25,025 nt of DNA from a virus (lineage: Duplodnaviria; Caudoviricetes). The DNA is taken from the IMG/VR virus record IMGVR_UViG_3300033076_001307, positions 1 through 25,025 of that record; one strand, 5' to 3'. The first letter of the stretch is position 1. The number at the start of each line of letters is the position of its first letter. The notes under the pieces were generated by a model. That model had not been told where the DNA came from, did not search any database, and was given only the letters and a program-made list of their open reading frames with translations. Both the position numbers and the translations under genes were made by a program. Below are positions 1-19,763 of the stretch, piece after piece.

Positions 1-210
1 GCGGGGACGGGGGGGCGGCACTACATCGACGCGGAGCGGGCGATGTGGCCGGAGCTGGTGGCGGCGGTGGGGAAGATCCCTGCGTTGCCTGCGCGGGTGG
101 AGCTGGAGGCGGCGGAGGCAGCGGAGGCGCGGAAGGTGGTGAGGCTTGGAGATCGGCGTGGCGATCGGCTTGGCGATCGGCTTGGGGCGCGCAAAGGGGG
201 GGGCGTGTGA
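1..210 (+). CDS. Hypothetical protein, 5'-truncated C-terminus (...AGTGGRHYIDAERAMWPELVAAVGKIPALPARVELEAAEAAEARKVVRLGDRRGDRLGDRLGARKGGGV*)
   Basis: Frame 1 is open from the window edge to TGA at 208-210, with mostly G/C third positions and a protein-like helical sequence. Not in the supplied ORF track. Confidence 0.6.
   Translation, partial: AGTGGRHYIDAERAMWPELVAAVGKIPALPARVELEAAEAAEARKVVRLGDRRGDRLGDRLGARKGGGV
143..185 (+). repeat. About 3.5 copies of a 12-bp tandem repeat (GGCTTGGCGATC) encoding (L/R)GDR repeats
   Basis: GGCTTGGAGATC / GGCGTGGCGATC / GGCTTGGCGATC / GGCTTGG read directly. Confidence 0.85.
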
Positions 211-275
211 GCGCCCTACAGGTTACCTACGTGGGGGGAGGCGAGATCGAGATTAAGGGGAGACGAAGGGACTAA
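207..275 (+). CDS. Putative 22-aa leader peptide (MSALQVTYVGGGEIEIKGRRRD)
   Basis: The GTG start overlaps the upstream TGA (GTGA coupling) and follows a purine-rich AAAGGGGGG tract. The ORF ends AGA-CGA-AGG-GAC-TAA. Confidence 0.45.
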   Translation: MSALQVTYVGGGEIEIKGRRRD

Positions 276-452
276 GGGAAAGCTGGGAAGATTCCACGTG
301 GAACCTACAAAAGCCACCAAACAGGGGCTAATCACAGCAATCAAGCTAATACCTGGGTTTTTCCAAATCGAGCGTGTAGCGCAATAAACCCCTTCGTACC
401 GCAGACTCACCCCCTCGTCTCCCCTCCCACCTACGCCACACACCGGAGACGA
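256..452 (+). promoter_or_regulatory. Candidate alternative-pairing RNA element controlling the endolysin RBS
   Basis: TCGTCTCC (415-422) is the exact complement of GGAGACGA (445-452), which contains the lysin SD. AGGGGAGACGAAGGG (256-270) is complementary at 14/15 positions to CCCCTCGTCTCCCCT (411-425). Confidence 0.55.
290..305. promoter_or_regulatory. parS-like palindrome GATTCCACGTGGAACC
   Basis: Perfect 12-bp palindrome TTCCACGTGGAA (292-303); 13/16 match to the symmetric chromosomal parS variant TGTTCCACGTGGAACA; lies in the lower-GC intergenic region. Confidence 0.45.
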
Positions 453-454
453 CC

Positions 455-1159
455 ATGCTGAAGATGCCGACCCTGCGAGAGAAGGACCTGTGCCAGAGCA
501 TCGTCAGCGTCTTCGAGACGGGGCAAGCCAGAGGGAACCCGTCCGCCGTGGCCATCCTGTCGGATGGGGCCGGGCTGTCGTACGGGGTACACCAGGCCAC
601 CGATCGATCCGACGCCCTCGATCGCATCCTCCTCCGGTACCTCGACCTGGGGGGTGACAGGGTCGCCGACGCTACCGAGGTGCTGCGCCTGGTCGAGGCC
701 GACGCCACCACTCGGTACACCTCTCTCCGCTCCGCGCCCCCCAACGTGCAACGCGCCGCCGAGCTGCTGGCCGATCTCGGTAAAGACCCGGTGATGGTGG
801 CCGCGCAGATCGACGTCTTCGACACGGACTACTGGAACCCGGCCGTCGCGCAGGCGCGGGAGATGGGGGTCGAGCGCCCGCTCACGATCGCGGTGCTGTA
901 CGACACCGCGATACAGAGCGGCATCGGTGGGATCGCCAACATCCGCAAGCGCTTTCCCGAGGTACCCCCCAGCCGAGGCGGCGACGAAATGCGCTGGACG
1001 GCCGCCTACGTCAAGGCCCGGCGGGCGTGGCTGGCGAGCCACTCCAACCCGCTGGTGCGTCGCACTGTTTACCGCATGGACGCCTTCCTCCAGTTGATCG
1101 GCGACAGCAATTGGTGGTTGCTGCCGCCGTTCACCGTGCGGGGTGTGACCGTCCAGTAG
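455..1159 (+). CDS. Endolysin, GH46 chitosanase-like (lysozyme superfamily), 234 aa
   Basis: IVSVFE(21)TG...SD(37)GAGLSYG parallels the GH46 catalytic Glu/Asp motif (LVSSAE...GDGRGYTGG). DPVMVAAQ..FDTDYWNPAVAQA..MG....AVLYDTAIQSG parallels the GH46 central helices. GGAG SD at 445-448; followed by a membrane protein. Confidence 0.8.
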   Translation: MLKMPTLREKDLCQSIVSVFETGQARGNPSAVAILSDGAGLSYGVHQATDRSDALDRILLRYLDLGGDRVADATEVLRLVEADATTRYTSLRSAPPNVQRAAELLADLGKDPVMVAAQIDVFDTDYWNPAVAQAREMGVERPLTIAVLYDTAIQSGIGGIANIRKRFPEVPPSRGGDEMRWTAAYVKARRAWLASHSNPLVRRTVYRMDAFLQLIGDSNWWLLPPFTVRGVTVQ

Positions 1160-1168
1160 GAGGGGAGA

Positions 1169-1546
1169 ATGGCCGAAGACCCCGCAGAGATCCTGAAAGC
1201 GGCGCGCATGCTCGCGGAGATCGAGCTGCGCGATCGGGTCGCTAAGGCAGCCGAGACGCAGGCGGCGGACGTCCGCAGGATCGCGGACATCCTCCAGCAG
1301 CTCGTCACGGCCTTAGCGCCGGTGCTCGAACTCGCCGGCGCTTGGCTGAAGTCTCCCGGCTGGGCAGCGCTAGCCCGCCACATCTACGACGGCATGCCGC
1401 CGTGGGCGCGCGGGCTCGCAGGCACCGCCATCGTTTTGACGATACTCGGGTTTTCGAGTACGCAGATGTTGGAGGCGCTCAAGTATGGGATCAGCTACCT
1501 CAGGGGCGATGCCCCAACCGTCCAAGCTCCAGCAGCCACGCCATGA
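1169..1546 (+). CDS. Holin-like membrane protein, 125 aa
   Basis: Strong AGGAGGGGAG SD; coiled-coil-like N-terminus and a hydrophobic segment GLAGTAIVLTILGF; directly downstream of the endolysin. Confidence 0.55.
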   Translation: MAEDPAEILKAARMLAEIELRDRVAKAAETQAADVRRIADILQQLVTALAPVLELAGAWLKSPGWAALARHIYDGMPPWARGLAGTAIVLTILGFSSTQMLEALKYGISYLRGDAPTVQAPAATP

Positions 1547-2382: not shown

Positions 2383-5300
2383 CTATGGCTCGCGGAAGGA
2401 GGCCGGCATCGACGTGCCGGGTACCGCCTTGAGCTGGTCACGCACCTGGAGCTGCGTGCCGTAGTCCGCGCCGGGGTAGGCGAGCGAGGTGGAAAAGCCG
2501 AGGCCCCCGATCGCGCGCTGCCACCAGGCCGGGTCGAAGCCGCCCCCGCCGCCCCCCAGCGCCGCCTGCCGCTGGAGCATGCGGTCGAAGGCCAGGATGC
2601 CGGTCGCCTCCAAGATGCCCGCGAGCGCCGGATCGTCGACGGTGTAGCGGGTGCGCGGGTCGGTCTGTCCTTCAATCACGCGCGTCCGTGCCGACAGATC
2701 CGGGTACAGCCCGAACCCGTCCAGGCTCCGCAGCATCTCGTACACCGGCTGCGACACCGTCACGCTCCCCTGAGCCACCGTCCCGAGGATGGGCATGCGC
2801 GTCGGGTCGACCACCTGCTCCTGAAACACCTGAGTGGCGGGCGGGGCAGCCGTGTCGCTGGCGAGGCTCACCCCGATCGCCGCCACCGATGCCAACAGCC
2901 CCAGCGTGAACCGGGCCGTGGCTTCCGCGCCGGAGGGCGGGGCGGCGACCACGAACAGCGGCTCGCTCCAGGCCGGCGACCGGTCGGGCTGGACCCCCGC
3001 CGGATCCTTGATGCCTTGCAGCCCGATCCGCGCCAGCCGCGCCGTCGCGGTGTCCTGCGCCCAACCGGGTAACCGCGCCTTCCACGCCGGATCATCGAAA
3101 TACTGTTGAGCCACCCCCAGCCCCCTTACAATCTCCGGCGGGAGTTTGTAACGGCGGACGATCGATTCTGTTGCGCCCATCCGGATCAGCTCGACCCGCT
3201 CCTCTCGGGTGAGCTGCTGCTGATCCATCCACCCCACCAGCGCGCGGTAATCCTCCACTTCCGGCGGCGTCATCCGCCCGGTTCCCACACTCTGCGCGTC
3301 GTAGTCCCCCTGATAGACCGCGTCGATCAGCTCCATCGCCTCACGCCGCCCGCGCAGTGCGACGCCGACCCGGAAGGCGCCCGACGGCGAGGCGAACGCC
3401 CCGAGGAATTGCCGTTGCGCGTTCTTCTGCCAACTCCAGAACGGCGCCAGCGCCTGCATGATCAGGTGCCGGTCTGCCGCCCCCAGGCTGTAGCGGTAGT
3501 CATACAGCGCCCGCACTGTCTCCTTCGCCGCCTGCTGGGGCGGCATCCCGCGATCCAGCAGCAGCGCGTAGAGTCCGAGACGCTGCCGCATCCCCACCAC
3601 CTCAGCGAGGTGGGCGACGCCCTCGCCGCCGAACAGGGCGCGTAGCCCGCTAAGCTCTCCGTCTCTGAGTTGCGCCACGTCGAAGCCGTCCAGCACCCCC
3701 GACCGCGCCGCCTCTTCGTAGAGCGATCGGGCGGTGTAGGTGCGACCGCCGACCTTTACGACATCGTCGGCGCCCGCGCCCAGGATGCGCCCTACGGTCG
3801 GCCGCAGCGCGCCGATGTGCAGCAGCCGATCGCCACGTCCGGCGCGCAATGCCTCCGTCAGCCGCACCACGATCGCCTCCGCTGCCGCCTGCCCCCCACC
3901 CACGAGGCCCTCGACCACCGCCTTTCCCTTGCCCGTCCCCAGCGCCGCCCCCAGCGCCACACGCACGGCCCCCACGCCAGCCTCGCCAGCGCCCACCACG
4001 CGCGCGAGCTCCGGCGCCGCCGCGACGCCGATCCCCATCACGGAGGCCAGTTCCGCCCGCAGGGCGTACTCGATCGCCGTCGACAGCCCGTGGGTGACGT
4101 AGACCTGTTCGATGTTGCCGTACATATTGTTGAGCAGGTAGCCGGGGCGCGCCCCCCACAGCCCGCGCGTCACCGCCCGTTTCCAGGCGGAAAAAATCGC
4201 CGCCTCAATGGTGGGCGGACTCTTCGTCACGACGGCTTCCGCCGCAGCCGCCCATCCCTCGCGCACCCGCGCCGGCACCCACGTGACGCGCCCCAGCGCC
4301 TCCTGCCCCGGCAGCGCCAGCGCCTCGCCGCTGATCGCGCTGCCCCTCACCCCCGGCTTCCGCACCGCGCTCAGCACCGCTACATCTGGCGGCCGCCCCG
4401 TCGCCCCTAGCTCGCGCACCCACGCCGCCTCCTCTCGGGTGAGCAGCAGGCCAGCGCCGTAGAGATCCTGAACGACGTCCATCTGCGCGCCCGTCGCCGA
4501 CACCCACGCCGCGAGCGCCCGCGACTCCGCCGCCGTCGCCTCCGGCAGCAGCGACATTAACAGCGCGGCCGGATCTTCCGCGTTCGCCAATTGCGCCACC
4601 ACCTCCGCGCGATCGACGCCAGGCCGGATCGCTTCGAGCGCGCGCCCGACGTCGCCCTGGCTCACCATGCCGCTCCGGATCATGCGGGAGGCGGCCTCCG
4701 CCCGCCCGGTCGAGCGCAGCCACGCCGCCGCAGCCTCCGGCGTGTCGAGCCCCGCGCGCAGCGCCTGCTCTGCGCCCATCGCCGCCGCCCGCTCCCCCCG
4801 GATCGCCGCCTCCCGCGAGGCCCGGCTGAGCCCGGCACGGAGGTAGGGCGCGGCCTCGTCCGCCCCCCTGAACGGGAACAGCAGCGCCCCCGCCCGCTCA
4901 TGCCAGGGCGCCGGGCGCACCAGCTCGCGCACCTCGCGCCGCGCCGCGAGCGCCCCCAGCCTCGTTCCATCCGCCGCTGCCGCCGCGCCCCGCCCGCCTG
5001 CCGCCGCGCCCTCCATGATCCGCGCCGCGCTGGTGGCCGCGCGCCGTTCCCACGCCGCCGCCGCATCCGGCGCGATCCGTTCCCCCACGCGCAGCTCGTC
5101 CGCGAGGTCTGCCCCGAAGCGCGCCGCGACGCTGCGGTTCACCGCCTCGACCTGTCGAGCCGTCAGCGGGATCTCCCGCCCCCCCTTCCAGGCCGCCGTC
5201 ACCGCCGCCGACGGCACGCCGACCGCGTCGCCCACCAGGTCTGCGAGCTGCGGCAGCTCTCCGGCGCTGGCGCCCGCTCGATAGCCGACGCGCGCCCGCA

Positions 5301-6995
5301 GATCCCCGACGGCCTCGACCACCGCCGCCTTGACCGCAGCCGCCTCGGTGACGACCTCGCGCAGCGCGACCGGATCGGCTGCGGCGATCGCGCGCTCTGC
5401 TTTGGCGCTGAGGCTGCGCCCGATGCTGGCCAGCCCCGGCGCCGCCGTCGCCGCCTCGCGCACCGCCGGACTCAGCACTGGCAACGCTGCCGCCCGCCCC
5501 CGCCGGGTAGCCTCGGTGACGAGGGCCTCGCCGCCCCCGGCCAGCGCCCGCTCCACCTCCGCCAGCCCCCGCGCGAGATCGTCGACCGCCGTCTTAGCCA
5601 TCGCTGCCGACACCGGCGGCCCGTCGACGCGAGGCACCGGTGGCTCCCCGCGAGGCACCGGCGGCCCGTCGACGCGAGGCACCGGCTCCCCGCGAGGCAC
5701 GGGTGGCCCGTCGCCGTGAGGTGCCGGCACATCGTCCATCGCCCGCGCCGCCCGCTCCAGCGCCACGTCCACGTCGGCCAGCGCCCGCGCACCCGTGCCG
5801 CCCACCAGGCCGCGCTCCAGCGCCCGCCCCGCACCCGGCAGCGCCCGCTCTGCGCCGCGCGCCAGCGCCCGTCCGCCCGCCGCCAGCCCGCGTGTCGCCC
5901 CCAGCGCCAGGCTCACGGGGTCGGGGGTGAACACGTCGGCCAGCGCCCCCAGCGTCGCCACCGTCGCCCGCCCCAGATCCGACGTCGGTGCGGTGTCTTT
6001 GGCGACGTCGGAGAACGCGCGCCGCTGGCGCAGCGCCGCAGGCCCGCTGACGTACTCGACCGGCGGCGCCTCGCGCACCGTGCCAGCGACCGCCCGCGCC
6101 GCTCGATCGGGGATGCCGGTCGCCGTCGCCGCGTAGATGGGCATCGACATGAGATCGATCGCGTAGCTGCCTGGACCCTGCTGGCGGAGGATGAGGTTCC
6201 CATCCTCATCCGTCCCGACCACCTCGACCCGAGGGGCCGCCGCCGACAGGTAGGCTCCGGCTCGATCCGGGCTGTCGTCATCGACGTTGTAATAGATGGC
6301 CGGCCCTACCCACACCCCCGCTGTCCGGAGCACCGCTGCGTCCCGCACCGCGTCCTCTGACGCGCGCCTGAACCCGTCCGCACCCGCGTACCGCTGCTGC
6401 TCCGGCGGCCGACGTGCATCCTCCGCCCGCCGCTGCTCACGCCGTCGGGCGATCCACGCGTCCGAGCTCGTCCGCGCGTCCGACTGCATCAGCGCCAGCA
6501 CGCCCTCGTCACGGAGCAGCCGATCTGCCTCCGCCCGCGCGAACGGCATGCCACTGCTGAGGCGCGCCTCGATGTTCCTGGCCTCATCGAACGGGGCGAC
6601 CACCTGCCCAGCTCGAACCCCACCGCCAGGACCTCGCGTCTCCAGCCCGCTGTCTGCACGAAATTGGCCGCGCGCGTTGATGCCGGCGGCGTCTCGACCG
6701 CCGGTGATCGGGCGCGGCACCGGCTCCGGCGGCAGCCCCATCTCAGACCGCGCGATCGCCCGATCGACCCGCGCCCACGCATCCAGACGTGCCTGCTCCG
6801 CAGGGTCTATCCGCGCACGTGCTGGCGCCGACGTCGAGGCCGCGAGCGGCGAGGCTGTCAGCGGTGCGGCTGTCGGCGGCGGAGCTGCCAGCGGCGAGGC
6901 GGGGGTCGGCGTCGGCGAGGCGAGGGGGGGCGCCGGCGAGGCGGGGGGCGGCGTCGGTGGCGGAGAGGCTGGGGTCGCACGCGGCAGCTTCGCCA

Positions 6996-6996
<1 letters not shown>
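2383..6996 (-). CDS. Large internal virion (ejection) protein, about 1537 aa
   Basis: Start re-called at ATG 6996 (MAKLPRA...; GGAGG SD; TGATG overlap with the upstream stop). The C-terminal RLGLYALLLDRGMPPQQAAKETVRALYDY...APFWSWQKN segment resembles large podoviral internal proteins. Last of three genes of increasing size after the tail genes. Confidence 0.75.
5611..5730 (-). repeat. Intragenic tandem repeats of 18-24 bp encoding PPVPRGE / PVPRVDG
   Basis: Repeated CACCGGCGGCCCGTCGACGCGAGG and CACCGG(TGG)CTCCCCGCGAGG units. Confidence 0.85.
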
Positions 6997-9424
<2,428 letters not shown>

Positions 9425-9425
<1 letters not shown>

Positions 9426-9934
9426 TACTTCTTCTCCATCAGGTGGAGGAGGCTCGTGAAATCGTCTGCTTCCGCCTCCGCCGGTGTCGCACGCGCGAGA
9501 TCGGAGAACCCAGCGACCCGCTGCGCCCGCTTCTCTCGGATGCGCCGCAGGATGTCGGCCTTCTGCGCCGCCGCCTGGCCGGCCGCCCCGACCTCGATCT
9601 GACCAGCCGCTTGCGCGGCCGCCGCCGTCGCCTGCTGGTTCGTCTGCTGGAGCGCTCCCTGGAGCGCCGCCGCCTGGCCGGGGTTCGCCGCCGCCTGCCG
9701 CGCGAGCGCATCGACGTTGGCGCGGTTGGCCGCCCGCGCCGACGCCAGCGCCGCCGCCTGCATCTGGCGCCGTTCCGCCTGCGAGGGTCCGAGCGTCCCA
9801 CGTTGCAGCGCCTGCATGTCAGCGCGCAATTGCTTTCGTTCGGCCCGCGCCTCCGGTGACACGGCGTCGACGGCCATGCCCGCGCCACGGATGGCGTAGG
9901 GCGCGAGGGTCGAGAGCAGACTGGCGATCGGCAT
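9425..9934 (-). CDS. Small Ala/Gln-rich internal virion protein, 169 aa
   Basis: Start re-called at ATG 9934 (MPIASLLSTLAPYAIRGAGMAV...) with AGGAGA SD. Hydrophobic N-terminus followed by an A/Q-rich coil, typical of the smallest ejection protein. The upstream part of the supplied 404-aa ORF is off-frame overlap with the next gene. Confidence 0.7.
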
Positions 9935-9942
9935 GTACTCTC

Positions 9943-10698
9943 CTACAGCGCGAGAATCCGCGCAGACCGGACGCCGAAGCGCAGCCGGTGGCGGATGAAG
10001 TGTTCGACGTTGCCCGCCGTCCGGTACAGCGGCACTAACAATTCCCTGCCCTGGGTTCGCGGGATCAGGCACTCCAGCCGGACGGAGTGCCAACCCACCG
10101 CCGGGTTGGTGATCATGTGCACCAGATCGAGGTGCTGCGTCAGCACCTGCTCCCGCGCCACCTCTGTCCCTGCGTTGCCAGGGTTCACGGCCGGATACCA
10201 CGTGTACGGGAACGGGCGGCGCGTGTGGCCGATCGGGGTGCCGTCGACCGCCATCCGCACGTACAGCTCCGGGCCGCCCGCCACCTCGACCGCCGGGTTC
10301 GGGTCGGTCGTCTCGCGCTGCCGCAGCACCGTCACGAAGGCGGAGACGTTGCAGATCAGCACCGCTGCTGCCCACGGCAGGTAGACCCGGTGGGCGGTGC
10401 CAGCGACCGCCAGCCAGTCCGTGTCGCCGGCGGCGCCGATGGCGGCCTGGCCGAACAAGCTGTCGTAGTAGACCCGCTCCACCTCTTCGCCGCCCGACAC
10501 CCCCAGGTGCAAATCGTTCGGCTTGAATTCGCGCGCGGTCAGCTTCGCCCCGGCGGCAAAATTCGCATCTTCCAGGTTCCCGTTCAGCTCCCCATAGACG
10601 CTGGCGCCGGCGGTCGTTGACCGCATGTCGCTGTTCCATCCGTTGACGTTGAAGGCCACGCCATCGACCGGAACATAAGGGTACGTCACGTCCGCCAC
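9943..10698 (-). CDS. Tail/virion structural protein, 251 aa, beta-rich (one module)
   Basis: GGAGG SD before GTG; located between the nozzle and the internal proteins; similar to both halves of the upstream gene. Confidence 0.65.
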   Translation of the reverse strand: MADVTYPYVPVDGVAFNVNGWNSDMRSTTAGASVYGELNGNLEDANFAAGAKLTAREFKPNDLHLGVSGGEEVERVYYDSLFGQAAIGAAGDTDWLAVAGTAHRVYLPWAAAVLICNVSAFVTVLRQRETTDPNPAVEVAGGPELYVRMAVDGTPIGHTRRPFPYTWYPAVNPGNAGTEVAREQVLTQHLDLVHMITNPAVGWHSVRLECLIPRTQGRELLVPLYRTAGNVEHFIRHRLRFGVRSARILAL

Positions 10699-10707
10699 GG
10701 GAGCCTC

Positions 10708-12201
10708 CTACGGGTAGAAGTGGAGCACCTGGAGGCTGCCGCCCTGCCAGGAGGTGATCATCCCGGCAGAGCTGTCGCCCGCTACCAGCGCCCGGTAGAA
10801 CGAGACGACGCCGCCGGCAGGGGGCGCAGCGCGAAAATCAAAGAAATCCAGCAACGGGATGTCGGCGTCGCAGTCGAAGAGGTTGGGCGCCGATGCCCAC
10901 GCCGGCGGCACGTTCGGGTTGTTGACGTGCGCCTCGGCTGCCTGCGTGTGGAAGTCGGTGGCGCTCGCGTACTGCCCCGCGATCGCGTAGACCCCGTACC
11001 GGTGCGGCACCGCCGGCAGCCCCGGATCGTAGGCTTTCCGATGGCTGATGTTGGCGAGGATCAGCACGAACGCCGGCGCCGCGCTGTAGTCGAACGGCCC
11101 AGTCACGCGCAGGTTGGTGCCGGCGCCGTCGTTCACCTCGTCCCAATTTCCGGCGTTCACGATGCCGGTGGAACCCCAGCCGGGGTAGAGCCGGGCGGTG
11201 GTGGTGCCGGCGGTGATGGCCTGCTGCTGCGCCTGGCGCAGCGCCCCAGCGCCGCCCGGCAGGTGCTCGCGCCGGAGTCCCTGTGCCTGGATCGCGCCCT
11301 GCCCCAGGTCGTTGATCGCCGTCTGGAGTGGGGTCAGGATGTCGCCGTTAAGTACGGCAGCGCTGATCGTCCCGTCCTCTGGGTACACGACGTTGACCGG
11401 CTGGATCGCTGGCGCCGCCGTCGGCTCCACCCGCTTGAGCCGGAGCGCCACCACCATCCGGCTGTAGATCCGCACGGGCTCTACGGCGCCGGCGATCGAG
11501 CCGGGATCATCCGGCGGCACCCGCCGCACCACCAGCTCCGCCGTGACCACGCCCGACGGCACCGGCACAAACGCTTGAACCCGCAGCGGGCGCACGTGCC
11601 AGCCCATCGAGCTGGTGGCGCGCAGCGCGTAGGTGTCGACCGACACGTTGTTTGTTGGTGTTGCCGGATCGATCGGGCTGACCGGGTAGATGCTGCGAGG
11701 CGCCCGCTCCGTCGCATCCCCGCTCCCCGTCACCGTCTCCGCCAGCACCGCCCCGTTCACGCGGAGCGCGACCTGGATGCGCGGCTTCAGCAGCGCCGTC
11801 TCCGTCAGGTCGAAGTCGACGATCGCGCCGGTCGGACAGATGCCGTACTCCAGCCACCCCAGCAGCCACAGGTTGTCCTCTCCCCCCGTCCAGGTTGTCG
11901 ACATCTGATCCACCACGGTCCACTCGCCGGAGTCCGGCACACGCCAGGCGTTGGCAGAGGTGCCGTCGGGGATGTCGTTGGCGTTGGTGTGGATGCCGGT
12001 GTCGGCCGCGACGCGGGCGGTGTACACGTCCAGCAGCATGCCCGTCGACCGGCGGCTGATCCCGAACGTCCCGCTCTTGACGTTGTGATCGTTGACCCGG
12101 CCCCCCAGCTCCTCCGCCGCTGGCTGCGCCGCCTGCCGCATCCGCAGGGGGTCCGGCATGTCCGCTTGGCGGATAATGTTATCCGGCACACGATACCCCA
12201 T
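10708..12201 (-). CDS. Tail/virion structural protein, about 497 aa, with two tandem beta-rich modules
   Basis: ATG 12201 overlaps the nozzle TGA (GTG 12204 is an alternative start); beta-strand patterning; synteny. Confidence 0.65.
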   Translation of the reverse strand: MGYRVPDNIIRQADMPDPLRMRQAAQPAAEELGGRVNDHNVKSGTFGISRRSTGMLLDVYTARVAADTGIHTNANDIPDGTSANAWRVPDSGEWTVVDQMSTTWTGGEDNLWLLGWLEYGICPTGAIVDFDLTETALLKPRIQVALRVNGAVLAETVTGSGDATERAPRSIYPVSPIDPATPTNNVSVDTYALRATSSMGWHVRPLRVQAFVPVPSGVVTAELVVRRVPPDDPGSIAGAVEPVRIYSRMVVALRLKRVEPTAAPAIQPVNVVYPEDGTISAAVLNGDILTPLQTAINDLGQGAIQAQGLRREHLPGGAGALRQAQQQAITAGTTTARLYPGWGSTGIVNAGNWDEVNDGAGTNLRVTGPFDYSAAPAFVLILANISHRKAYDPGLPAVPHRYGVYAIAGQYASATDFHTQAAEAHVNNPNVPPAWASAPNLFDCDADIPLLDFFDFRAAPPAGGVVSFYRALVAGDSSAGMITSWQGGSLQVLHFYP

Positions 12202-14255
12202 CACGCCCCCCGCAGCGCGCCCTGTATGCGCGACTTATTGTTATCCTGCCGCTCCACCAGGAATGCAAACCCCACCAGATGGAGCACGCGGCCCGACGTG
12301 CTCGACAAAGAGAACCGGAACCCGGCGATATTGTTAATATCAATGTCCACCTTGCGGCACCGGATCTGCGGCTGCCGGAAGATGGTGCTGCCCACGGTCG
12401 CCCCTCCGTAGGCGTCCGCCGCCACGATGTCGCCGCCGCAGAGGTCGATCGGGTAGTCCCGGTACTCGCCGTCGGGGCGATCCGTCACCCACACCCGCAG
12501 CGTCGCCGACCCGCCCGCCACCACCGCCGACTCTACGAAGTGGATGAGGATGCCGCGCAGCCGGAACACCACGCTGGCATCCTCCCCCATCCGCACCACG
12601 CCGCTCTCGAACGCGGAGGCGATCGTGTCGCCCTCGATCACGGAGGGGCGGTTCCAGATCCGTACGTTCTGCCCCTCGCCGCCCAGGTAGCTGCCCATCA
12701 GCAGGTGCCGGGCGTGGCCGGGCGCCGCCGCCAGCGCGGTGATGCGGCGCCCACCGGCGTCCGACTCGCTCCAGCCCCCCGTGCGGACGTCGTAGAGCAG
12801 CAGCTGATCCGGCAGCGGCGAAGAGCCAGTGCATACCGCCAGCACGTACACCCCCGTCCGAGGATCGACGGCGCCGACGGCCCGCCCCAGGTACGAGCTG
12901 GGCAGCCGCGCGTACGTCTGCCGGATCGGATCCGAGACGCGCGCCGGCACGCCGCCCGAAAGGGTGTACACCCCGTCCATCGCCATCCAGATCAGGTCGC
13001 CGTTCGGCAACACCGCGAGCGTCGCCGGCGCCACGCACCCGACGCCGCCGATCAGCGGCCTGCTGGTGACCACGTCGCCGGTCGCCTCCACCTGGAAAAT
13101 ACTGTTAGCGGTGAACGCCAGCAGGCCACCGGCCGTCGCCGCCAGCCCCGTTACCGCCGCGCCGCCGGCGTCGGGGATCACGCGCGCCGTCCGTGGCCAT
13201 GTACCTGGGAACCCTGGTTCAGATAGCCTGATCATCCCTGGGTTATCGTTGAAATTGGCAGCCACCAGCCGCCCCTGAAATTCGCACGCGACCCGGTACG
13301 GCGTCACCGGGTCGAGCTCTACCAGCGTGGGTCCCGCCGACAGCAGCCCGTCGCTCTCGCCGTCGGGTAGCCCGAACGCCTCGCGGCCGGTCAGCCTCGC
13401 CAGCAGGTAGTAGGCGCCGTCCGTGTGGAGCTTGTCCGTGGTGCGGTACACCCGGATCGCTCCAACGTGTTCCTCGCCGGGGTCGATCCCTCGGAGACAG
13501 AACTGGCGCGTCATGCTGTCGAGGTGGTTCAGCCGCTCGTAGTCCGCCGAACTGTTGACGAGGTAGCCGGTGGACTGGAGCCGGAGGGCGGCGGTCGCCT
13601 CTGCGCTGGCCGGGCTGAGGTTCCCGAACGGGTCTTCCCACTGGACGCGATACCCCCACGCCCCCGCCAGTAGCGCGCCGTCCTCGCCGTCGTAGGACTG
13701 GACGGTGCCGATCCCGCCGACATGGGCATACCCGGCATAGTTCGGCACCGACTGAGACGAGCTCGCGCCGCCCGACGGATAGAGCACCGTCGGCGCCGCC
13801 GGCGCCCGGTCGAACCCGAGCCGGATCACCTGACGGCCGTAGGTGGTCACACCGTCGATCAGCAGCGGCGCGTCGACGCCGTTGCTCCAGCAGACCCGCC
13901 CGTTGATCGCCACCATCGAGTCCGGGTAGGGCTGCCCCAGGTCGTAGGTCAGGCCCGACTCCAGCACCTGCACTGAGCGCGTCCAGCCCTGGTGGCGCCC
14001 CAGCTTGTCCCCGTACCGGATCAGCGTGATCTGGTTGGCGCCCCCGGCCAGCTCCAGGTGCGCCAGCCCCAGCACGTAGGCGGCGAGGTTGAGGCCGGGT
14101 TCGAGCGGGGCGGTGTCGCCGCAGCGCAGCAGCGTGTTGCCGGGATCCTCGCTCACCCCCATGTTCAGCAACCGCTTGGCGAGGCTGGCCGGGCGGTACA
14201 GCGTGTCCGCCTGGATGAAGATCTGGCCGATGTCGAGATAGGTCAGGCGCCCCAT
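12201..14255 (-). CDS. Tail nozzle / tubular protein B-like (T7 gp12 / P22 gp10 type), 684 aa
   Basis: Beta-propeller-like repeats, FQGRLVAA..., IRLSEPGFPGTWP, GVGCVAPAT, WMAMDGVY..., VSDPI; follows the adaptor gene. Confidence 0.75.
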   Translation of the reverse strand: MGRLTYLDIGQIFIQADTLYRPASLAKRLLNMGVSEDPGNTLLRCGDTAPLEPGLNLAAYVLGLAHLELAGGANQITLIRYGDKLGRHQGWTRSVQVLESGLTYDLGQPYPDSMVAINGRVCWSNGVDAPLLIDGVTTYGRQVIRLGFDRAPAAPTVLYPSGGASSSQSVPNYAGYAHVGGIGTVQSYDGEDGALLAGAWGYRVQWEDPFGNLSPASAEATAALRLQSTGYLVNSSADYERLNHLDSMTRQFCLRGIDPGEEHVGAIRVYRTTDKLHTDGAYYLLARLTGREAFGLPDGESDGLLSAGPTLVELDPVTPYRVACEFQGRLVAANFNDNPGMIRLSEPGFPGTWPRTARVIPDAGGAAVTGLAATAGGLLAFTANSIFQVEATGDVVTSRPLIGGVGCVAPATLAVLPNGDLIWMAMDGVYTLSGGVPARVSDPIRQTYARLPSSYLGRAVGAVDPRTGVYVLAVCTGSSPLPDQLLLYDVRTGGWSESDAGGRRITALAAAPGHARHLLMGSYLGGEGQNVRIWNRPSVIEGDTIASAFESGVVRMGEDASVVFRLRGILIHFVESAVVAGGSATLRVWVTDRPDGEYRDYPIDLCGGDIVAADAYGGATVGSTIFRQPQIRCRKVDIDINNIAGFRFSLSSTSGRVLHLVGFAFLVERQDNNKSRIQGALRGA

Positions 14256-15658
14256 CAGCTCCCCCGGTAGCGGAGTGGACCCTCAGTCGGCAGCCGGCCG
14301 CCGAACCCATCCCGGCTGATCTTGCCCGTGGGGTTCGAGGTCTGCGCCCGGAGACTGCCGATCTGATCCCTCGCCTGTTTGGCGAAGACCTGCGCGAGCT
14401 GCTCATCCTGATCGCGGCGCGCGTACCAGTGGGCGCAGAACAACGCCAGCGCGCTCCGGTACTCCGGCACCACGGCCGGGCTGTCGTTGTCGTTGAGCAG
14501 CAGCGGCGGCCGACACGTCACCCGGATGTCCATCTCCGTCCGCGCGTCCGGCGTCGGCCACATCGACCAGGCGTAGTAGACCCCCTGCTCCGGCAGCCGG
14601 AGGGTGTAGTCTGGGATCGCCGCTCCATCGTCATCGTAGGTCGTGACCGGCCCATCGACGTCCGCGAGTGCCTGGAAGACGTCGGGGTATTCGATGGTCT
14701 GGTGAGTTCCTCCGGTGATGCTTTTGCGGCGTCGGTAGATGCGCTTGTACAGGCCGGAGTGACCGGCCCGTAGCGCCCCCGCTACGTTGAAGTTCACCAT
14801 CCAGTCCACTTCCGGCACCGTCACCCGGACGATCTGGGGAGCGGTCGAGGTGATGGGGCCGGAGATCGGCGACGGCGCCGACTCGAACAACGGGATCGGC
14901 GTGCCGCTGGGGGACTTGTTGTACAGGTCGCGGTAGCCCCAGCAGTAGGTGAAGCAGTACTCGAACTGCCCCGTTGGCTCCCCCGCCCATGTCCCTTCCA
15001 CCAGCGCGACGGCGGGCGCCCGCGTCGGCGCCCGCTGCTGGTAGCTGTGTTCACGACGCAGCTCGGTAGGGTAGCCGCTGACGATGCTCACCTGGTTGCG
15101 GGTCTGCCACTGGTTCGCCGCCTGCGTCGCGGTGGTGAGGCGCATCGGGCCGCCGGTCGAGCCCCACCGGACGACGGTGTGTATGCGGCTCCACTCTGAG
15201 GGACACCACAGATACTGCGCCACCAGGGTCCACGACAGGCCGGTGGCGGTGCCGGAGGTCCAGGGTCGATCCAGGCTCACATACTTCTCACCGGTCAGCG
15301 CCAGCCAGAATTCCCGGCACCAGAACCGGTAGGTCTGCCCCTTCGCGGTGACCTCCAGGTGGTACATCCCGTCCCAGGTGCGGTCTGTGACGGGCGCGAA
15401 CGTCCCCCCGACAAACTGTAGCACCCAGGGATCGGAGGTGGTCGACAGCGTGGTGCCGCCGTAGGCACCGGAGCTGAGCGTACCCGGCACCACCTCGCGC
15501 GGCGTCTGCGGGTACAGCGCCTCCGGCGCCTCCGTGTACAGGAGGTCGAGGCCGTGCCGGATCGCCTCGTTCAGGCGGGTCTGTTCCGTACCCGCATCCT
15601 GGCCGATGTCCCAGGCCAACAGGGCGCGGATGTCCGTGCGTAGATCTCCCCGGTTCAT
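14255..15658 (-). CDS. Head-tail adaptor / tubular protein A-like with a large insertion, 467 aa
   Basis: Adaptor-type termini (MNRGDLRTDIRALL...RLNEAIRHG; MWPTPD...DNDSPAVVPEYRSALALFCA); AGGAGG SD; follows the capsid genes. Confidence 0.7.
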   Translation of the reverse strand: MNRGDLRTDIRALLAWDIGQDAGTEQTRLNEAIRHGLDLLYTEAPEALYPQTPREVVPGTLSSGAYGGTTLSTTSDPWVLQFVGGTFAPVTDRTWDGMYHLEVTAKGQTYRFWCREFWLALTGEKYVSLDRPWTSGTATGLSWTLVAQYLWCPSEWSRIHTVVRWGSTGGPMRLTTATQAANQWQTRNQVSIVSGYPTELRREHSYQQRAPTRAPAVALVEGTWAGEPTGQFEYCFTYCWGYRDLYNKSPSGTPIPLFESAPSPISGPITSTAPQIVRVTVPEVDWMVNFNVAGALRAGHSGLYKRIYRRRKSITGGTHQTIEYPDVFQALADVDGPVTTYDDDGAAIPDYTLRLPEQGVYYAWSMWPTPDARTEMDIRVTCRPPLLLNDNDSPAVVPEYRSALALFCAHWYARRDQDEQLAQVFAKQARDQIGSLRAQTSNPTGKISRDGFGGRLPTEGPLRYRGS

Positions 15659-15673
15659 CCGGCCCCCCTCCTG

Positions 15674-16162
15674 TTACAGCGTGTTGATCCGGCAGTTGGC
15701 GAGGCTGCCGGCGGCGCCGTCCGCCTCCAGCGCCACGCCGAAGGCGGCGGCCACCTCGTCCGCGTTGGTCAGCGTCGCGGTCTTGACCCGGCCCGCCGTC
15801 CCCTCGCACATGATGCTGTCGTTGGCCGCCACCGCGCCGTCGCACTCCACCTTGCAGCGGCCCAGGCAGATGACGTAGCCGTAGCTCCCGGAGGCGATCG
15901 CGTGGTCGGCGACACCGAGCACCTTGCCCTTCGGCAGCTTGGCCGTCGCCGCCAGGATGGCGTCATTCCAGGTGAGGTCGCTCGCCTTCATCTGCACCAC
16001 GTCGCCCTGCGCGAAGGCGGTAGCGCCCTCCTTGTTGACGACGTAGCGCCAGAGCGTCCAGCCGTAGGTGGGGTGGAGGTACCAGCGCAGGGTACCCAGC
16101 TCGGTGCGGGGGGAAGTGGAGACGTCCGTGATGAGGTGGTCGTAAAAAGAACGATCGAACAT
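15674..16162 (-). CDS. Capsid cement/decoration protein (DUF2190/Bbp16-like), 162 aa
   Basis: VLGVADHAIASGSYGYVICLG..VECDGAVAAND...AFGVALEA pattern; immediately after the major capsid gene; GGAG SD. Confidence 0.65.
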   Translation of the reverse strand: MFDRSFYDHLITDVSTSPRTELGTLRWYLHPTYGWTLWRYVVNKEGATAFAQGDVVQMKASDLTWNDAILAATAKLPKGKVLGVADHAIASGSYGYVICLGRCKVECDGAVAANDSIMCEGTAGRVKTATLTNADEVAAAFGVALEADGAAGSLANCRINTL

Positions 16163-16192
16163 AGTCGCTCCCGATGGGGGGGTGAGGGTGAA

Positions 16193-17290
16193 CTACGGGA
16201 TGCGGCCGCCCGCGATCAGGCAGTGGGCGTTGAGGCGCAGCACCATCGGCTGCCAGTCGTTGTGGCACTTGGCGACCACCACGTCCTGATCCGCGATCAT
16301 GTCCTTGAACTCCGGCGCCTCGTCCAGCTCCTCCAGGTAGGGGACCTCGACAAACTCAGAGTTGAGGAAGTAGATCACGCCGCCAGTGATGGCGCTGGTG
16401 GACAGGCACGGGGTACCCGTGAAGCTCGCGTTAGTGGGGTCGAGGTTCACACCCACATCGTAGACCCGCGCCGCCTTGTACAGCAGGAACTCCGCCGACT
16501 TCGGCCCGTCCACCCGCTCATCCGTGGACACCACCCGCACGTTGTCGCGGATGTTGGCGCTCAGGTTGCTGAAAGATCCCCCGTCGGCGAACCCAAAGTC
16601 CGGCGCCTGGCCGTCGCCGCGCTGCGCCGCGAGGTTGTACGCCGCCTCGATCGTCACCATCCCGTTGGCGGCGAAGCTGGTGATCGCGCCGAACTGAGAG
16701 ATGTGCTGGATGGTGTTGTTGCGGGCGACGCCCTGGACGTTGCCCGTCTGCGACGCCGGCGCGAGGGCCTGGAACCAGCCGGTGTTGCCGTCCGAGTGGG
16801 TGATGTTGCCGTTGAAGGTGGCGGCCCCGTCGAAGTCCGGGCTGTCGATGACCGACACCGCCGGATCGTGGTAGGCGCCCGTCAGCAGCCAGTACTCCCA
16901 GTCCTCCATGTACTGCGCGAAGGAGGCGGCGGGGTATTGCTTGATCAGCTTGACCACCCCCTGGGTTCCGTCGTTCTTCTTCAGGTCGACGTTGGGGATA
17001 GTGATGGGGATGAGGTGGCGGGTAGACTCGACCCGGTAATTCTTGGTGACGGAATTGCGGGTGAGCGCCGCGATCTCGTTGCCGGTCGAGATCTTCTTGC
17101 CCTTCGCCGGGCTGCCGTAGCCGAAGGGGCGCTCGAAGTAGGTGCCGCCCACCCGCTCCTTGTTCACCTTCTTCTTGTCGATCAGGTACTTCATCAACGG
17201 CTTGCGCGACGCCGTGACCAGGATGAGGTTGCCGCCCTTCACGTACATGTCCGCGAGGGTGGTGTTAAGGACATCGATAGAGACTGCCAT
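16193..17290 (-). CDS. Major capsid protein, 365 aa
   Basis: Size and position between scaffold and cement genes; LNTTLAD...PLMKYL...GGTYFERP, IYFLNSEFVE, PEFKDM..QDVVVA patterns typical of podoviral HK97-fold capsids. Confidence 0.8.
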   Translation of the reverse strand: MAVSIDVLNTTLADMYVKGGNLILVTASRKPLMKYLIDKKKVNKERVGGTYFERPFGYGSPAKGKKISTGNEIAALTRNSVTKNYRVESTRHLIPITIPNVDLKKNDGTQGVVKLIKQYPAASFAQYMEDWEYWLLTGAYHDPAVSVIDSPDFDGAATFNGNITHSDGNTGWFQALAPASQTGNVQGVARNNTIQHISQFGAITSFAANGMVTIEAAYNLAAQRGDGQAPDFGFADGGSFSNLSANIRDNVRVVSTDERVDGPKSAEFLLYKAARVYDVGVNLDPTNASFTGTPCLSTSAITGGVIYFLNSEFVEVPYLEELDEAPEFKDMIADQDVVVAKCHNDWQPMVLRLNAHCLIAGGRIP

Positions 17291-17359
17291 CGTTTTCCCA
17301 CAGAGCAGGGTGGAGGTTGTACTGCGCTGCTACCGACTGGCGCGGCCTCCGGCTCCGGC

Positions 17360-17407
17360 GTGGGCTACGGGAGGTGAGCGACAGGGCTCACCCCTATGAT
17401 AGCCCAC
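17360..17407. promoter_or_regulatory. Interrupted inverted repeat/hairpin upstream of the major capsid gene
   Basis: GTGGGCTA (17360-17367) / TAGCCCAC (17400-17407) encloses an inner stem GGTGAGC-GACAGG-GCTCACC. Confidence 0.6.
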
Positions 17408-17424
17408 ATCCACATCCCTATCCA
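17396..17424 (-). promoter_or_regulatory. Sigma70-like promoter for the major capsid gene
   Basis: TGGATA-N17-TATCAT on the minus strand in the scaffold-capsid intergenic gap. Confidence 0.55.
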
Positions 17425-17448
17425 CTCTGCGATCTCACCATCAGCTAT

Positions 17449-18387
17449 CTACCGTTTGTGCTTACTGACCGCCCCCGACGCCGCTTCTGCGATCATCTGC
17501 TCCAGCGTGTACCCCTTCGGAAACCCCGCCTCTGCGGTGCCGGGCGCCTCGCGGTTGTTGCTGACCTCGGTTGCTCTCTCCCAGGCGTCGCGCTTTGGCG
17601 TGGGCGGAGTCGGCGGTTTCGGCTGCTGCTGGGGCGTCTCCGCCTTCGCCAGTTTGAACTTTCCGCGCACGATTTCTGCTGCCTCCGCGAGATCCACATC
17701 CGCAGAGACCAGGCGCTCGAAGAGCTCGCCGGCCTTGTCATCGGCCAGGATGTCCGCATAGTCGCGCACGATCTCCTGCTCCATCCGCGCCTGCTCCTGC
17801 CGCGCCGCCTCCTGCCGCGCCGCCTCCGCTTGCTGCCGGTACGCGCGCAGCTCCACCAGCTCCTTCTGCAGCTTCTGCGCCTCCGAGTCATCCCCCCCAT
17901 AGAGGGCCTCCAGCAGCTCCGCCCGCTTGACCCGCTCCTCCGCCGCCTTGCGTCCGGCCTCGAACTCCGCCCGCTGCGCCTCCAGCGCCTTCTTCTCCTC
18001 TGAGGTCTTCCGGTACTTTTCGGAGTACCCACGTTCGAGGTTCCCCCACTTCGCCTTCACCCCGTCCCGCACCTGCGCCTGCACTTCCGGCGCCAGCGCC
18101 TTGTACCACGGCAGCGCCGCCAGCCCCTCGACCTCGGTACATCGTGGCGTGGGTGTCGATGCGCCGCCTGCCCCGGCGCCGGCACCGCCCGCACCGCCTC
18201 CCCCAGCGTCGGCACCGGCCGCCCCAGCACCGGCACCGCCCGCACCGCCAGTCCCCCCAGCGCCAGCATCGGCGCCACCAGCACCGGCACCAGCACCACC
18301 AGCGCCAGCGCCGGCACCACCGCCGGCTCCCCCGCCATCGCCCCCGCCGTCGCCCTCTTCCTCGAACACGTCTTCAAACAGGTACAT
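17449..18387 (-). CDS. Capsid scaffolding protein, about 312 aa, with a Gly/Ala-rich N-terminal tract
   Basis: Acidic N-terminus, NLERGYSEKYRKTSEEKKALE motif typical of scaffolds, coiled coil, directly upstream of the capsid gene; TGATG coupling. Confidence 0.75.
   Translation of the reverse strand: MYLFEDVFEEEGDGGGDGGGAGGGAGAGAGGAGAGAGGADAGAGGTGGAGGAGAGAAGADAGGGGAGGAGAGAGGASTPTPRCTEVEGLAALPWYKALAPEVQAQVRDGVKAKWGNLERGYSEKYRKTSEEKKALEAQRAEFEAGRKAAEERVKRAELLEALYGGDDSEAQKLQKELVELRAYRQQAEAARQEAARQEQARMEQEIVRDYADILADDKAGELFERLVSADVDLAEAAEIVRGKFKLAKAETPQQQPKPPTPPTPKRDAWERATEVSNNREAPGTAEAGFPKGYTLEQMIAEAASGAVSKHKR
18161..18351 (-). repeat. Low-complexity (GAG/GAGA)n-coding repeat tract
   Basis: Repeated GCACCG/GCGCCA units on the + strand. 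Confidence 0.8.
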
Positions 18388-18590
18388 CACAGGCTCCGGT
18401 TGACGAGGGTGTCAGTGGGGTGGAACACGCCATCCATGACGGCGTCACGGATCGGCGTCCCGTTGAGGATGGCATCGCCCAAGCGCCCCAGCCGCAGCAG
18501 CGCCTCATCGATCTGCGGCTCAGAGATCGGCGGAGTGTCGGGCGTGGGGGGCGGCGCGGGCGGCGCGGCGGGCGGCTTCGTCGGCAGCAT
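18387..18590 (-). CDS. Small hypothetical protein, 67 aa
   Basis: AAGGAG SD; abuts the upstream stop and overlaps the scaffold start. Confidence 0.65.
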   Translation of the reverse strand: MLPTKPPAAPPAPPPTPDTPPISEPQIDEALLRLGRLGDAILNGTPIRDAVMDGVFHPTDTLVNRSL

Positions 18591-19763
18591 TCACGGCTCC
18601 TTCGGCAAAAAGTAAACCTTGCTCCCATTATGGGACTTGGACGCTACGACGCTGCGGGCGCGCAGCTCTGACAACATGCGCCCCAGCACCACCTGTTGGC
18701 GCCGCACCGACGCACCCTCGACCTCGATGTCGAGGCTCTTGCAGAGATCCAGCACGTCCAGGCTCGACAGTCGGGCCGCGCCGTGCTTTGCCCACCAGGC
18801 CGGCAGAACGCGGCGCCACCAGTCCGGCAGCGTCGGCGAGGTCGAGGCTTCCAGCGCTGGCTCCGACGCGGGCTCACCACCCTCCAATTCAGCGGCGGCT
18901 TGTTCCTCGATCGGCGCGCTCATAGACGAGATGCCGTTGTCGCTCTCGCCATTCATCCCCTCGGTGGCTGAGGCGTCCGCCCCGATCGAGGTCTCGGAGG
19001 TCGCGGTTGGCTCGGTCTTCCTCTCGCCGTCGACGATCAGCGGCGGAGTCTCCTTCGACTTCGAGGGGGGTTCCCCACTGTTGCTGGTATTCCTGTTGGA
19101 ATGCTCTCCATTTTTCGGGAGTGTCGTATGTGACGCCTCCGAGTCGGATGGGGGCGAAGCCGGTGGGGACAACGGTGGCGTCGTCTGGATCGGGGGCGTC
19201 GCCTCGGCAGACGGGGCAGGCATTGACGAGGCGTCCGCCGATGGTGACGTATCGCTCTCGGACGTGGCACTGGCAGCGGGGGGGCATGGCTCCTCCAAAA
19301 GATGTGGGGCGCAGAGGCCGACATCGAACCCCATGTCCGTGTAGGCGTCGGCGAGGTCGGCGGTGGTGAGGGAGACGCCCTCGCACCGGGTATGGGGCGG
19401 CAGGCGCCAGCACCGGGCATAGGTGCGCGTCGCGTCCGGGCGCATCGACACCCACGCCACGATGTACCGCCGCACCTCGTTCAGGCACCAGAGCTGCAGC
19501 GACTCGCCGCGATGGCGCTGGACGCAGCCGCGCCAGTGCCGCGCCGCCACCCGCGCCACCCACGCGAGCACTTCGACGTGCGGCATGTTCTCCTCACCGT
19601 GCGCCTCCCCAAAGTGGGCGCGGACGTTCCCGATCAGCACATAGGGATCGTGCTCCCCCATGAACCGGTGGCGGTTGTCCGCGTCCGCCAACGGATAGGA
19701 CGACGGCGGAGCCTGAAGGGCGCGCAGCGGCGAGGTCGGCAGATTCTCTACGATGTCGGGCAT
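18591..19763 (-). CDS. Hypothetical protein, 390 aa: N-terminal domain, S/T/P-rich linker, C-terminal winged-helix-like domain
   Basis: AAGGAGG SD; fills the gap between the portal and the 67-aa ORF exactly; both termini look globular. Confidence 0.6.
   Translation of the reverse strand: MPDIVENLPTSPLRALQAPPSSYPLADADNRHRFMGEHDPYVLIGNVRAHFGEAHGEENMPHVEVLAWVARVAARHWRGCVQRHRGESLQLWCLNEVRRYIVAWVSMRPDATRTYARCWRLPPHTRCEGVSLTTADLADAYTDMGFDVGLCAPHLLEEPCPPAASATSESDTSPSADASSMPAPSAEATPPIQTTPPLSPPASPPSDSEASHTTLPKNGEHSNRNTSNSGEPPSKSKETPPLIVDGERKTEPTATSETSIGADASATEGMNGESDNGISSMSAPIEEQAAAELEGGEPASEPALEASTSPTLPDWWRRVLPAWWAKHGAARLSSLDVLDLCKSLDIEVEGASVRRQQVVLGRMLSELRARSVVASKSHNGSKVYFLPKEP
18889..19287 (-). 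CDS. Nested 132-aa Zn-ribbon-like protein (MPPRCQCH...ACPVCRG...)
   Basis: GGAGGAG directly upstream of ATG 19287; CxC...CxxC motif; strongly C-ending codons in its first half. Small Zn-ribbon genes are common between portal and scaffold. Confidence 0.65.
   Translation of the reverse strand: MPPRCQCHVRERYVTIGGRLVNACPVCRGDAPDPDDATVVPTGFAPIRLGGVTYDTPEKWRAFQQEYQQQWGTPLEVEGDSAADRRRREEDRANRDLRDLDRGGRLSHRGDEWRERQRHLVYERADRGTSRR

Follow-up and report, generated by a model that had tools for sequence, protein, structure and literature searches.

A candidate RNA leader before a likely GH46 endolysin gene of a tailed phage, and a parS-like site within it

One question raised by the left end of this phage contig is what occupies the longest of its 17 gaps, 244 bases lying immediately before the gene for a likely lysis enzyme. 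The window, by which we mean the whole stretch of 25,025 bases analysed here, is a contig of a tailed phage in which the matches to terminase, connector, capsid and tail proteins all fall on the minus strand, and a short plus-strand cassette at the left end faces these virion genes. In order, the cassette comprises the end of an upstream ORF (1-210), the gap, the GH46 gene (455-1159), a 125-aa gene and a 103-aa gene. An earlier, sequence-only reading regarded the gap as a leader in which the SD region of the lysin is occluded by a complementary strand, itself preferentially paired further upstream, and in which a ribosome pausing on three Arg codons would keep the lysin off.

The product of the GH46 gene scores 56.2 bits against Pfam PF01374 (cut-off 27) and matches seven PDB sequences of GH46 chitosanases, while Glu21 and Asp37, the catalytic residues of GH46, are invariant in 24 aligned sequences. 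The likeness to the chitosanases thus lies in a family score above the cut-off and in these two residues, kept in the aligned set, whereas the present clade differs in sitting on viral contigs and in that some relatives carry PF01471, which we take to be a peptidoglycan-binding domain. PF01471 is present in 11 of the 108 protein relatives, which suggests wall lysis as the role of the clade, and since GH46 relatives are also found at 50 viral loci the label 'endolysin' appears fair, the product being likely, as judged by family membership, to be one. The clade on phage contigs is probably an under-recognised endolysin family labelled chitosanase in databases; in one preprint viral GH46 proteins are tallied as chitosanase annotations, without testing (bioRxiv 10.1101/2024.12.20.629349). 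It is a large clade (L001-L130) on viral and metagenome contigs, often just behind a gene for a hydrophobic protein (L003, L004, L007, L026); a holin label was sought for such hydrophobic neighbours in related loci, and five of five lacked a Pfam family at cut-off.

The virion module (2383-24018, minus strand) is highly divergent. Its terminase has 21-26% identity to those of cultured phages (best 12 of 723 matches), and five long ORFs within 2383-18390, together with that at 18591-19763, matched no PHROG or Pfam family. Cultured phages yielded no match to leader or lysin, and single-protein scans of viral contigs with lysin, capsid and terminase gave no confirmed locus of a related phage. A tRNA/tmRNA search found none. 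Likewise, the homologue search with the upstream ORF at 1-210 found none; this ORF contains three 12-base tandem repeats at 151-186, coding DRRG/DRLG repeats.

Table 1. Features of the left-end cassette, with positions in the window
Feature	Position	Strand	Basis or remark
Upstream ORF, 3' end only (cut by contig end)	1..210	+	GC3 0.83, CAI 0.63
7-bp hairpin, GTGA stop/start overlap in loop	200..217	+	folding, P 0.77
22-codon ORF across both upstream arms, putative	207..275	+	GTG overlaps TGA 208-210; CAI 0.42
Arm A, predicted main partner of anti-SD strand, pairs with 414-435	230..251	+	complementarity and folding; overlooked in the sequence-only reading
Arm B, predicted pairing with 390-412 in rod; a substitute partner for 411-425 only if arm A is missing	256..270	+	
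AT-rich core, the contig's longest, lying exactly between repeats	271..399	.	composition scan
parS-like palindrome, exact 12-bp core, 13/16 to M. xanthus consensus	290..305	.	predicted site
IHF-site-like match, 1 mismatch, weak	339..351	+	3 in window vs 0.9 expected
Arm D, predicted to pair with arm B while transcription is under way, ahead of anti-SD synthesis	390..412	+	
Arm C, C-rich, contains anti-SD 415-422	411..435	+	
SD region of GH46 gene, GGAG six bases before ATG at 455	445..452	+	
GH46 lysozyme-superfamily hydrolase, likely endolysin	455..1159	+	Pfam PF01374
Ribosome site of next gene, exact 10-base complement of 418-427	1159..1168	+	
125-aa gene, one moderately hydrophobic stretch; holin-like by position only	1169..1546	+	no family match

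The leader is G-rich in its left half, where three G-rich units stand in tandem, and C-rich in its right half. The three pairings on which the sequence-only reading was built are present as described: 415-422 pairs exactly with the SD region 445-452 over 8 bp, 256-270 is complementary to 411-425 at 14 of 15 positions, and 263-270 is complementary to 390-397 over 8 bp. A repeat of at least 15 nt with at most one mismatch appeared in 2 of 300 shuffles within 20-nt blocks, in 1 of 300 within 40-nt blocks and in 0 of 300 when the whole was shuffled. Similarly, an 8-bp anti-SD arose in 34 of 5000 block shuffles, and in 1 of 5000 it was accompanied by a second, upstream occurrence of the SD 8-mer. 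A 4-base direct repeat at 227-230 and 431-434 bounds 200 bases whose two ends form an imperfect inverted repeat, much as an insertion would leave behind; the scar-like 227-434 stretch was found in no further copy.

The region 200-470 folds at -96.7 kcal/mol, a value equalled by 4 of 200 dinucleotide shuffles. Because of the G-rich left and C-rich right halves, the inner region 226-440 was compared with shuffles confined to composition-keeping 20-base blocks, and its energy of -81.0 kcal/mol (vs -58.0±5.5) was reached by 0 of 60. Relative to its own null it ranks first of 164 window-strands across the contig, its own minus strand being second (z -4.8 on the mRNA strand vs -2.8 on the opposite strand, for which the absolute energy is -85.0 kcal/mol). 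The block-shuffle nulls are mononucleotide ones and the region was picked after the fact, so that these figures indicate structure, not function.

For the full leader, folding predicts a rod in which A (230-251) pairs with C (414-435), B (257-270) with D (390-412), and an inner stem joins 276-284 to 356-364, the base of the rod being a predicted near-continuous helix of about 22 bp. The helix 230-251/414-435 has P 0.94-0.99 in the full leader, whereas 256-270/411-425, which the sequence-only reading took for the preferred pairing of the anti-SD strand, has P~0 there and costs 6.7 kcal/mol to force. It does form (P 0.97-1.0) for starts at 240-256 or when 230-255 is held open, and because it appears only when arm A is missing it is to be regarded as a back-up. 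The SD hairpin, worth -10.5 kcal/mol alone, has P <=0.03 in naked transcripts starting at 1-256 and P 1.0 when the 5' end lies at 260-416, in agreement with the earlier statement that a transcript starting downstream of 270 keeps the lysin off. It also reaches P 1.0 when 207-285, 226-275 or 240-285 is held open. The companion statement, that the SD is exposed by freeing arm 256-270, is not supported in folding: the leader behaves alike with and without 256-270 constrained to be single-stranded, P(SD closed) remaining ~0, and nothing short of the loss of both arms closes the SD. What stands of the proposed layout, then, is the existence of mutually exclusive helices of the anti-anti-SD kind; its wiring does not, in that arm 230-251 holds the anti-SD. 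Folds of growing prefixes give an order of events, D capturing B first and A then capturing the anti-SD before the SD exists. With E allowed up to 10, none of the Rfam covariance models (6S, riboswitches, phage motifs) matched 200-460, and a lone Rfam hit at E=5 lies inside the lysin gene, outside the leader.

The two states differ in the predicted cost of opening the SD, which is 9.7-14.8 kcal/mol for starts at 260-416 vs 4.4-5.0 for starts at 200-256; with 5' ends at 418-430 the SD is again open (5.0-6.7 kcal/mol). For the ribosome site the shift between states, from 3.4 to 14.3 kcal/mol, is the largest among the 17 phage genes and was matched by 0 of 60 shuffles in each of two nulls. The rod-state start (3.4 kcal/mol) is the most accessible of the 17, and the closed-state cost of 14.3 kcal/mol is ordinary for this GC-rich phage (range 5.8-21.8 across the 17 genes). 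With 5' ends at 1, 100 and 150 the 'open' state itself costs 10.8, 11.8 and 7.1 kcal/mol via other pairings, which makes the contrast between open and closed smaller. By these models the leader region is real and not random; its fold could work in two states, though its wiring departs from the scheme first proposed for it.

The small ORF described as coupled to the previous gene is present at 207-275; it stops three bases past the second upstream arm and carries AGA-CGA-AGG at 261-269, codons that are indeed rare in this phage (AGA 12, AGG 23 and CGA 49 of 655 in the Arg codon use of its 17 genes). A CAI as low as that of the ORF occurs in 15 of 337 gene windows. That either the ORF or its Arg run means more than chance is not borne out: 157 of the 210 RTGA sites in the contig open a frame of at least 22 codons, so that such a coupled ORF is at chance level, and RRR falls within the first 40 residues in 25 of the 210 RTGA-opened frames. 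Moreover, the Arg codons are not independent evidence, being the same letters as pairing arm B. When a ribosome was modelled at the three Arg codons, the SD closed in one of nine footprints, the longest one at AGA (P 1.0), and in the other eight P was <=0.3, contrary to the claim that a pause there closes the SD; holding 243-278 open also closes it. The Arg codons could at most slow ribosome traffic, and Arg sensing is unneeded. Because the ORF covers both upstream arms and ends right after them, ribosome traffic rather than a pause would be the trigger. The search for homologues or a family of the 207-275 ORF found none, and short ORFs with RRR precede 8 of the 88 lysin relatives, most of them without a leader. 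An open +1 frame of 58 codons (211-387, plus strand) overlaps the short ORF; a split gene, comprising the ORF and the +1 frame to 387, was considered and rejected, no homologue being found (best phrog_7088 at E 0.13). On the minus strand a 64-codon ORF (216-410) with a hydrophobic middle lies behind a G-rich run, with no homologue or family.

How widely, then, is the leader shared? A DNA match sought in 130 lysin loci, in cultured phages and by pattern scans of viral contigs gave no homologue; the two matches in the 130 loci (E 0.17 and 0.60) are both far from the gene, and the leader pattern gave 0 matches in viral contigs and 38 in genomes, alike in the pattern arms only. A MITE or other short inverted-repeat element was ruled out, with no multiple copies having a related interior and one exact pattern only. 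In one Labilithrix contig (L140:360-645, reverse) about 150 bases lie between the halves of a long inverted repeat that has tandem hexamers on either side, and this interior is unrelated to the leader. Starts could be assigned in 126 of the 130 loci; after removal of 3 uncertain starts and merging of duplicates to 101, 93 had enough upstream DNA, and for counts of gap length and of motifs before the relatives 88 loci were kept. None of the 93 lysin relatives, at about 33-58% identity, has the switch (maximum shift 3.8, none reaching 5). The gap before the gene has a median of 25 bases in relatives and is <=60 bases in 66 of 88, so that most relatives have no room for such a leader.

The closest comparison comes from a contig about 93% alike in sequencing run X4, which aligns to 464-2400 with 138 differing letters and 18 gaps; at 80% it shows no match to 1-463. 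On its upstream side it extends for 362 further letters if its coordinates are on its own strand, otherwise for 86; its likely protein is P0001 (96% identical), whose start, like that of the proteins next in closeness, coincides with ATG 464. As far as these comparisons reach, the pairings are not kept in relatives, an outcome that the sequence-only reading itself named as refuting it. With respect to these closest relatives the GH46 gene has three extra N-terminal codons (455-463), the junction lying at the second ATG, 464. Since homology starts at 464 and the relatives start there, leader and gene may be recently joined. By these alignments the leader, the SD and codons one to three are lineage-specific. 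X4 also contains another contig, of low depth, that spans 176-345 with 5 differences, which means that the left half of the leader exists in another sample; the whole leader was seen in one genome.

We tentatively favour, at something short of an even chance, the reading in which 230-452 is an RNA leader controlling access to the ribosome site of the GH46 gene, driven by traffic on the short ORF or by the position of the transcript start. The rod would tie up its own anti-SD strand and leave the SD free, and the SD would close only when both upstream arms, A and B, are unavailable. During transcription D would take B, and A would then take the anti-SD before the SD is made; in a naked transcript starting at or before 256 the SD would be free of the anti-SD, with arm B as back-up. 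The likeliest trigger would be ordinary ribosome traffic: ribosomes arriving from the upstream gene and translating the coupled ORF would melt arms A and B and so hold lysin synthesis down on read-through mRNA. The gene would be switched on once this traffic ceased, on a transcript with its 5' end between the GTG and 256, or again if the rod were cut at or beyond about 418. In favour of this RNA leader are the stability of the rod against its nulls, the size of the shift between the two states, the anti-SD with its upstream SD copy, the order of folding and the pairing of arm C with both ribosome sites. Several observations weigh against it, among them the lack of conservation, the ordinary closed-state cost and the smaller contrast with 5' ends at 1, 100 or 150. 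The rod contains the only DNA that is AT-rich and promoter-like, and a transcript begun there would have the closed form, and there is no promoter match; the scan for sigma-70 promoters and terminators gave no match in the 271-399 core, and the phage's own promoter type may differ. The minus strand also folds well, second of the 164, as a DNA repeat would; a freed arm C prefers the next gene's site in folds of 900-1000 bases; and the ORF is putative, its occurrence being at chance level.

Structure-gated translation is known for the T4 lysozyme gene e, with a 100-fold effect, and also for soc, 49 and I-TevI (PMC3014915). The likeness is that of an SD helix, here a predicted one, at a phage gene for a lytic enzyme, here a likely one, access being set by the transcript start; in gene e one local hairpin shuts the long transcript and leaves the short late transcript open, whereas here the naked long transcript is predicted to be open and starts at 260-416 closed, with a 210-base rod and two redundant anti-anti-SD arms. 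The gene e structure is kept in relatives, whereas the present leader is not conserved (0 of 93) and no late promoter match was found. In attenuators of the ermC and cat-86 type, stalling on a leader peptide switches the gene on, the stall site covering a key arm. The short ORF overlapping the upstream arm of mutually exclusive, SD-controlling helices, as folded here, resembles these; unlike them, ribosomes would here switch the gene off, most positions at the Arg codons lie too far downstream for arm A to be freed, and the ORF follows a gene to which it is coupled instead of lying at the 5' end. A literature search for a described case of such a leader found none, most subscription papers being outside the search. 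If the RNA reading is true, the ribosome site of the lysin would be shut by translation of an upstream ORF and not by transcript length alone, a new wiring of a known principle in a field, the timing of lysis outside lambda and T4, that is little mapped.

The pairings may have a different origin, in the DNA. The leader could be a DNA element, its AT-rich core with the parS-like site being flanked by a 15-bp inverted repeat and by short units in tandem, that serves partition, replication or site-specific recombination (the core itself might invert), with the RNA pairings as a by-product. On balance we think this unlikely; nevertheless, the contig's longest AT-rich core and the parS core together make it a serious rival, and it may coexist with the RNA reading. 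The core lies exactly between the repeats, and a 12-bp parS core is expected 0.0005 times per window and occurs once in the contig. The 16-bp comparison used the M. xanthus consensus (PMC3899335), and one mismatch of the parS-like site falls where that consensus has G. The tandem G-rich units on the left and the weak IHF-like match at 339-351 point in the same direction, as does the fact that the best repeat (14/15) is the one unused by RNA folding and that both strands fold well. The use of host parS by a phage has a precedent in phi29, whose genome carries parS sites bound by the host Spo0J (PMC2731898). The likeness is that of a chromosome-type parS palindrome on a phage genome; phi29 has five sites, whereas here there is one candidate site, 13/16, predicted from sequence. 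Against a DNA element stand this single, imperfect site, the lack of a parS core among the 88 related loci, and the lack of a recognised recombinase or replication gene among the 21 ORFs scanned in this partial contig; this reading also leaves unexplained that both the lysin SD and the ribosome site of the next gene are matched exactly. Joined forms were sought in four of 17 sequencing runs, in which one low-depth contig touches the leader, and none was found. Taken with a G+C content of about 70%, the parS-like site hints at a host using this type of parS. The site may link the phage to host chromosome partition, and were the structure only a DNA element or a leftover, this parS lead would be its remaining value.

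It is also conceivable, if improbable, that the rod is static or is a processing stem of the RNase III type, so that it keeps the site open, or is cut to free the mRNA of the lysin and possibly a small RNA as well; the SD hairpin would then be irrelevant in the cell. RNase III processing has its precedent in the sites of T7 early mRNA. The helix of about 22 bp at the rod base, the open SD with 5' ends at 418-430 and the most accessible start of the 17 genes are consistent with such a stem, which does not explain the exact match between the 3' arm and the SD (34 of 5000 shuffles); nor was there an Rfam family, or a literature match for the analogy.

The break in homology at 464, the three extra first codons, the 4-base repeat flanking 231-430 and the open +1 frame 211-387 would fit a further account, in which leader and SD come from another gene, a decayed small gene or an insert joined to the GH46 gene by recombination, and the pairings have no role in lysis now. 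We consider it distinctly improbable: neither the +1 frame nor the shifted reading has a homologue, there is no repeated element family, and the match to the next gene's ribosome site would be chance (1/200, about 0.1 after 16 tests). The remaining account, that of the sequence-only reading, in which a ribosome paused on AGA-CGA-AGG blocks 256-270, the SD hairpin forms and lysis is tied to arginine or tRNA supply, is very improbable, since, for all the rarity of these codons and the closure by the longest AGA footprint, a block of 256-270 alone is without effect, eight of nine footprints give P <=0.3, and the ORF with its RRR is at chance level.

The strand that would control the lysin under the RNA reading is also complementary to the site of the gene that follows. 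Pairing of arm C with the lysin ribosome site was equalled in 0 of 200 shuffles and that with the next gene's site in 1 of 200, or about 0.1 after 16 tests; against the other 15 starts it is not clearly beyond composition (best 17/200). In the 900-1000-base folds a freed arm C goes with 0.63-0.74 to the next gene's site and with 0.25-0.36 to the lysin SD, the former rising to 0.99 when the lysin gene is held open, long-range folds being weak predictions. As a long shot, then, one C-rich strand might serve as the shared anti-SD of both lysis-cassette genes, held in the rod (both on), paired with the SD of the lysin (lysin off) or, from the time the lysin is being translated, with the next gene's site 740 bases away (second off), with ribosome traffic on the ORF setting the state. 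This would amount to an ordered, RNA-only timer for lysis, of polarity opposite to that of T4 gene e, built around a host parS site. In the ~93% relative, which is without the leader, the site corresponding to 1159-1168 carries a one-base deletion and a one-base insertion.
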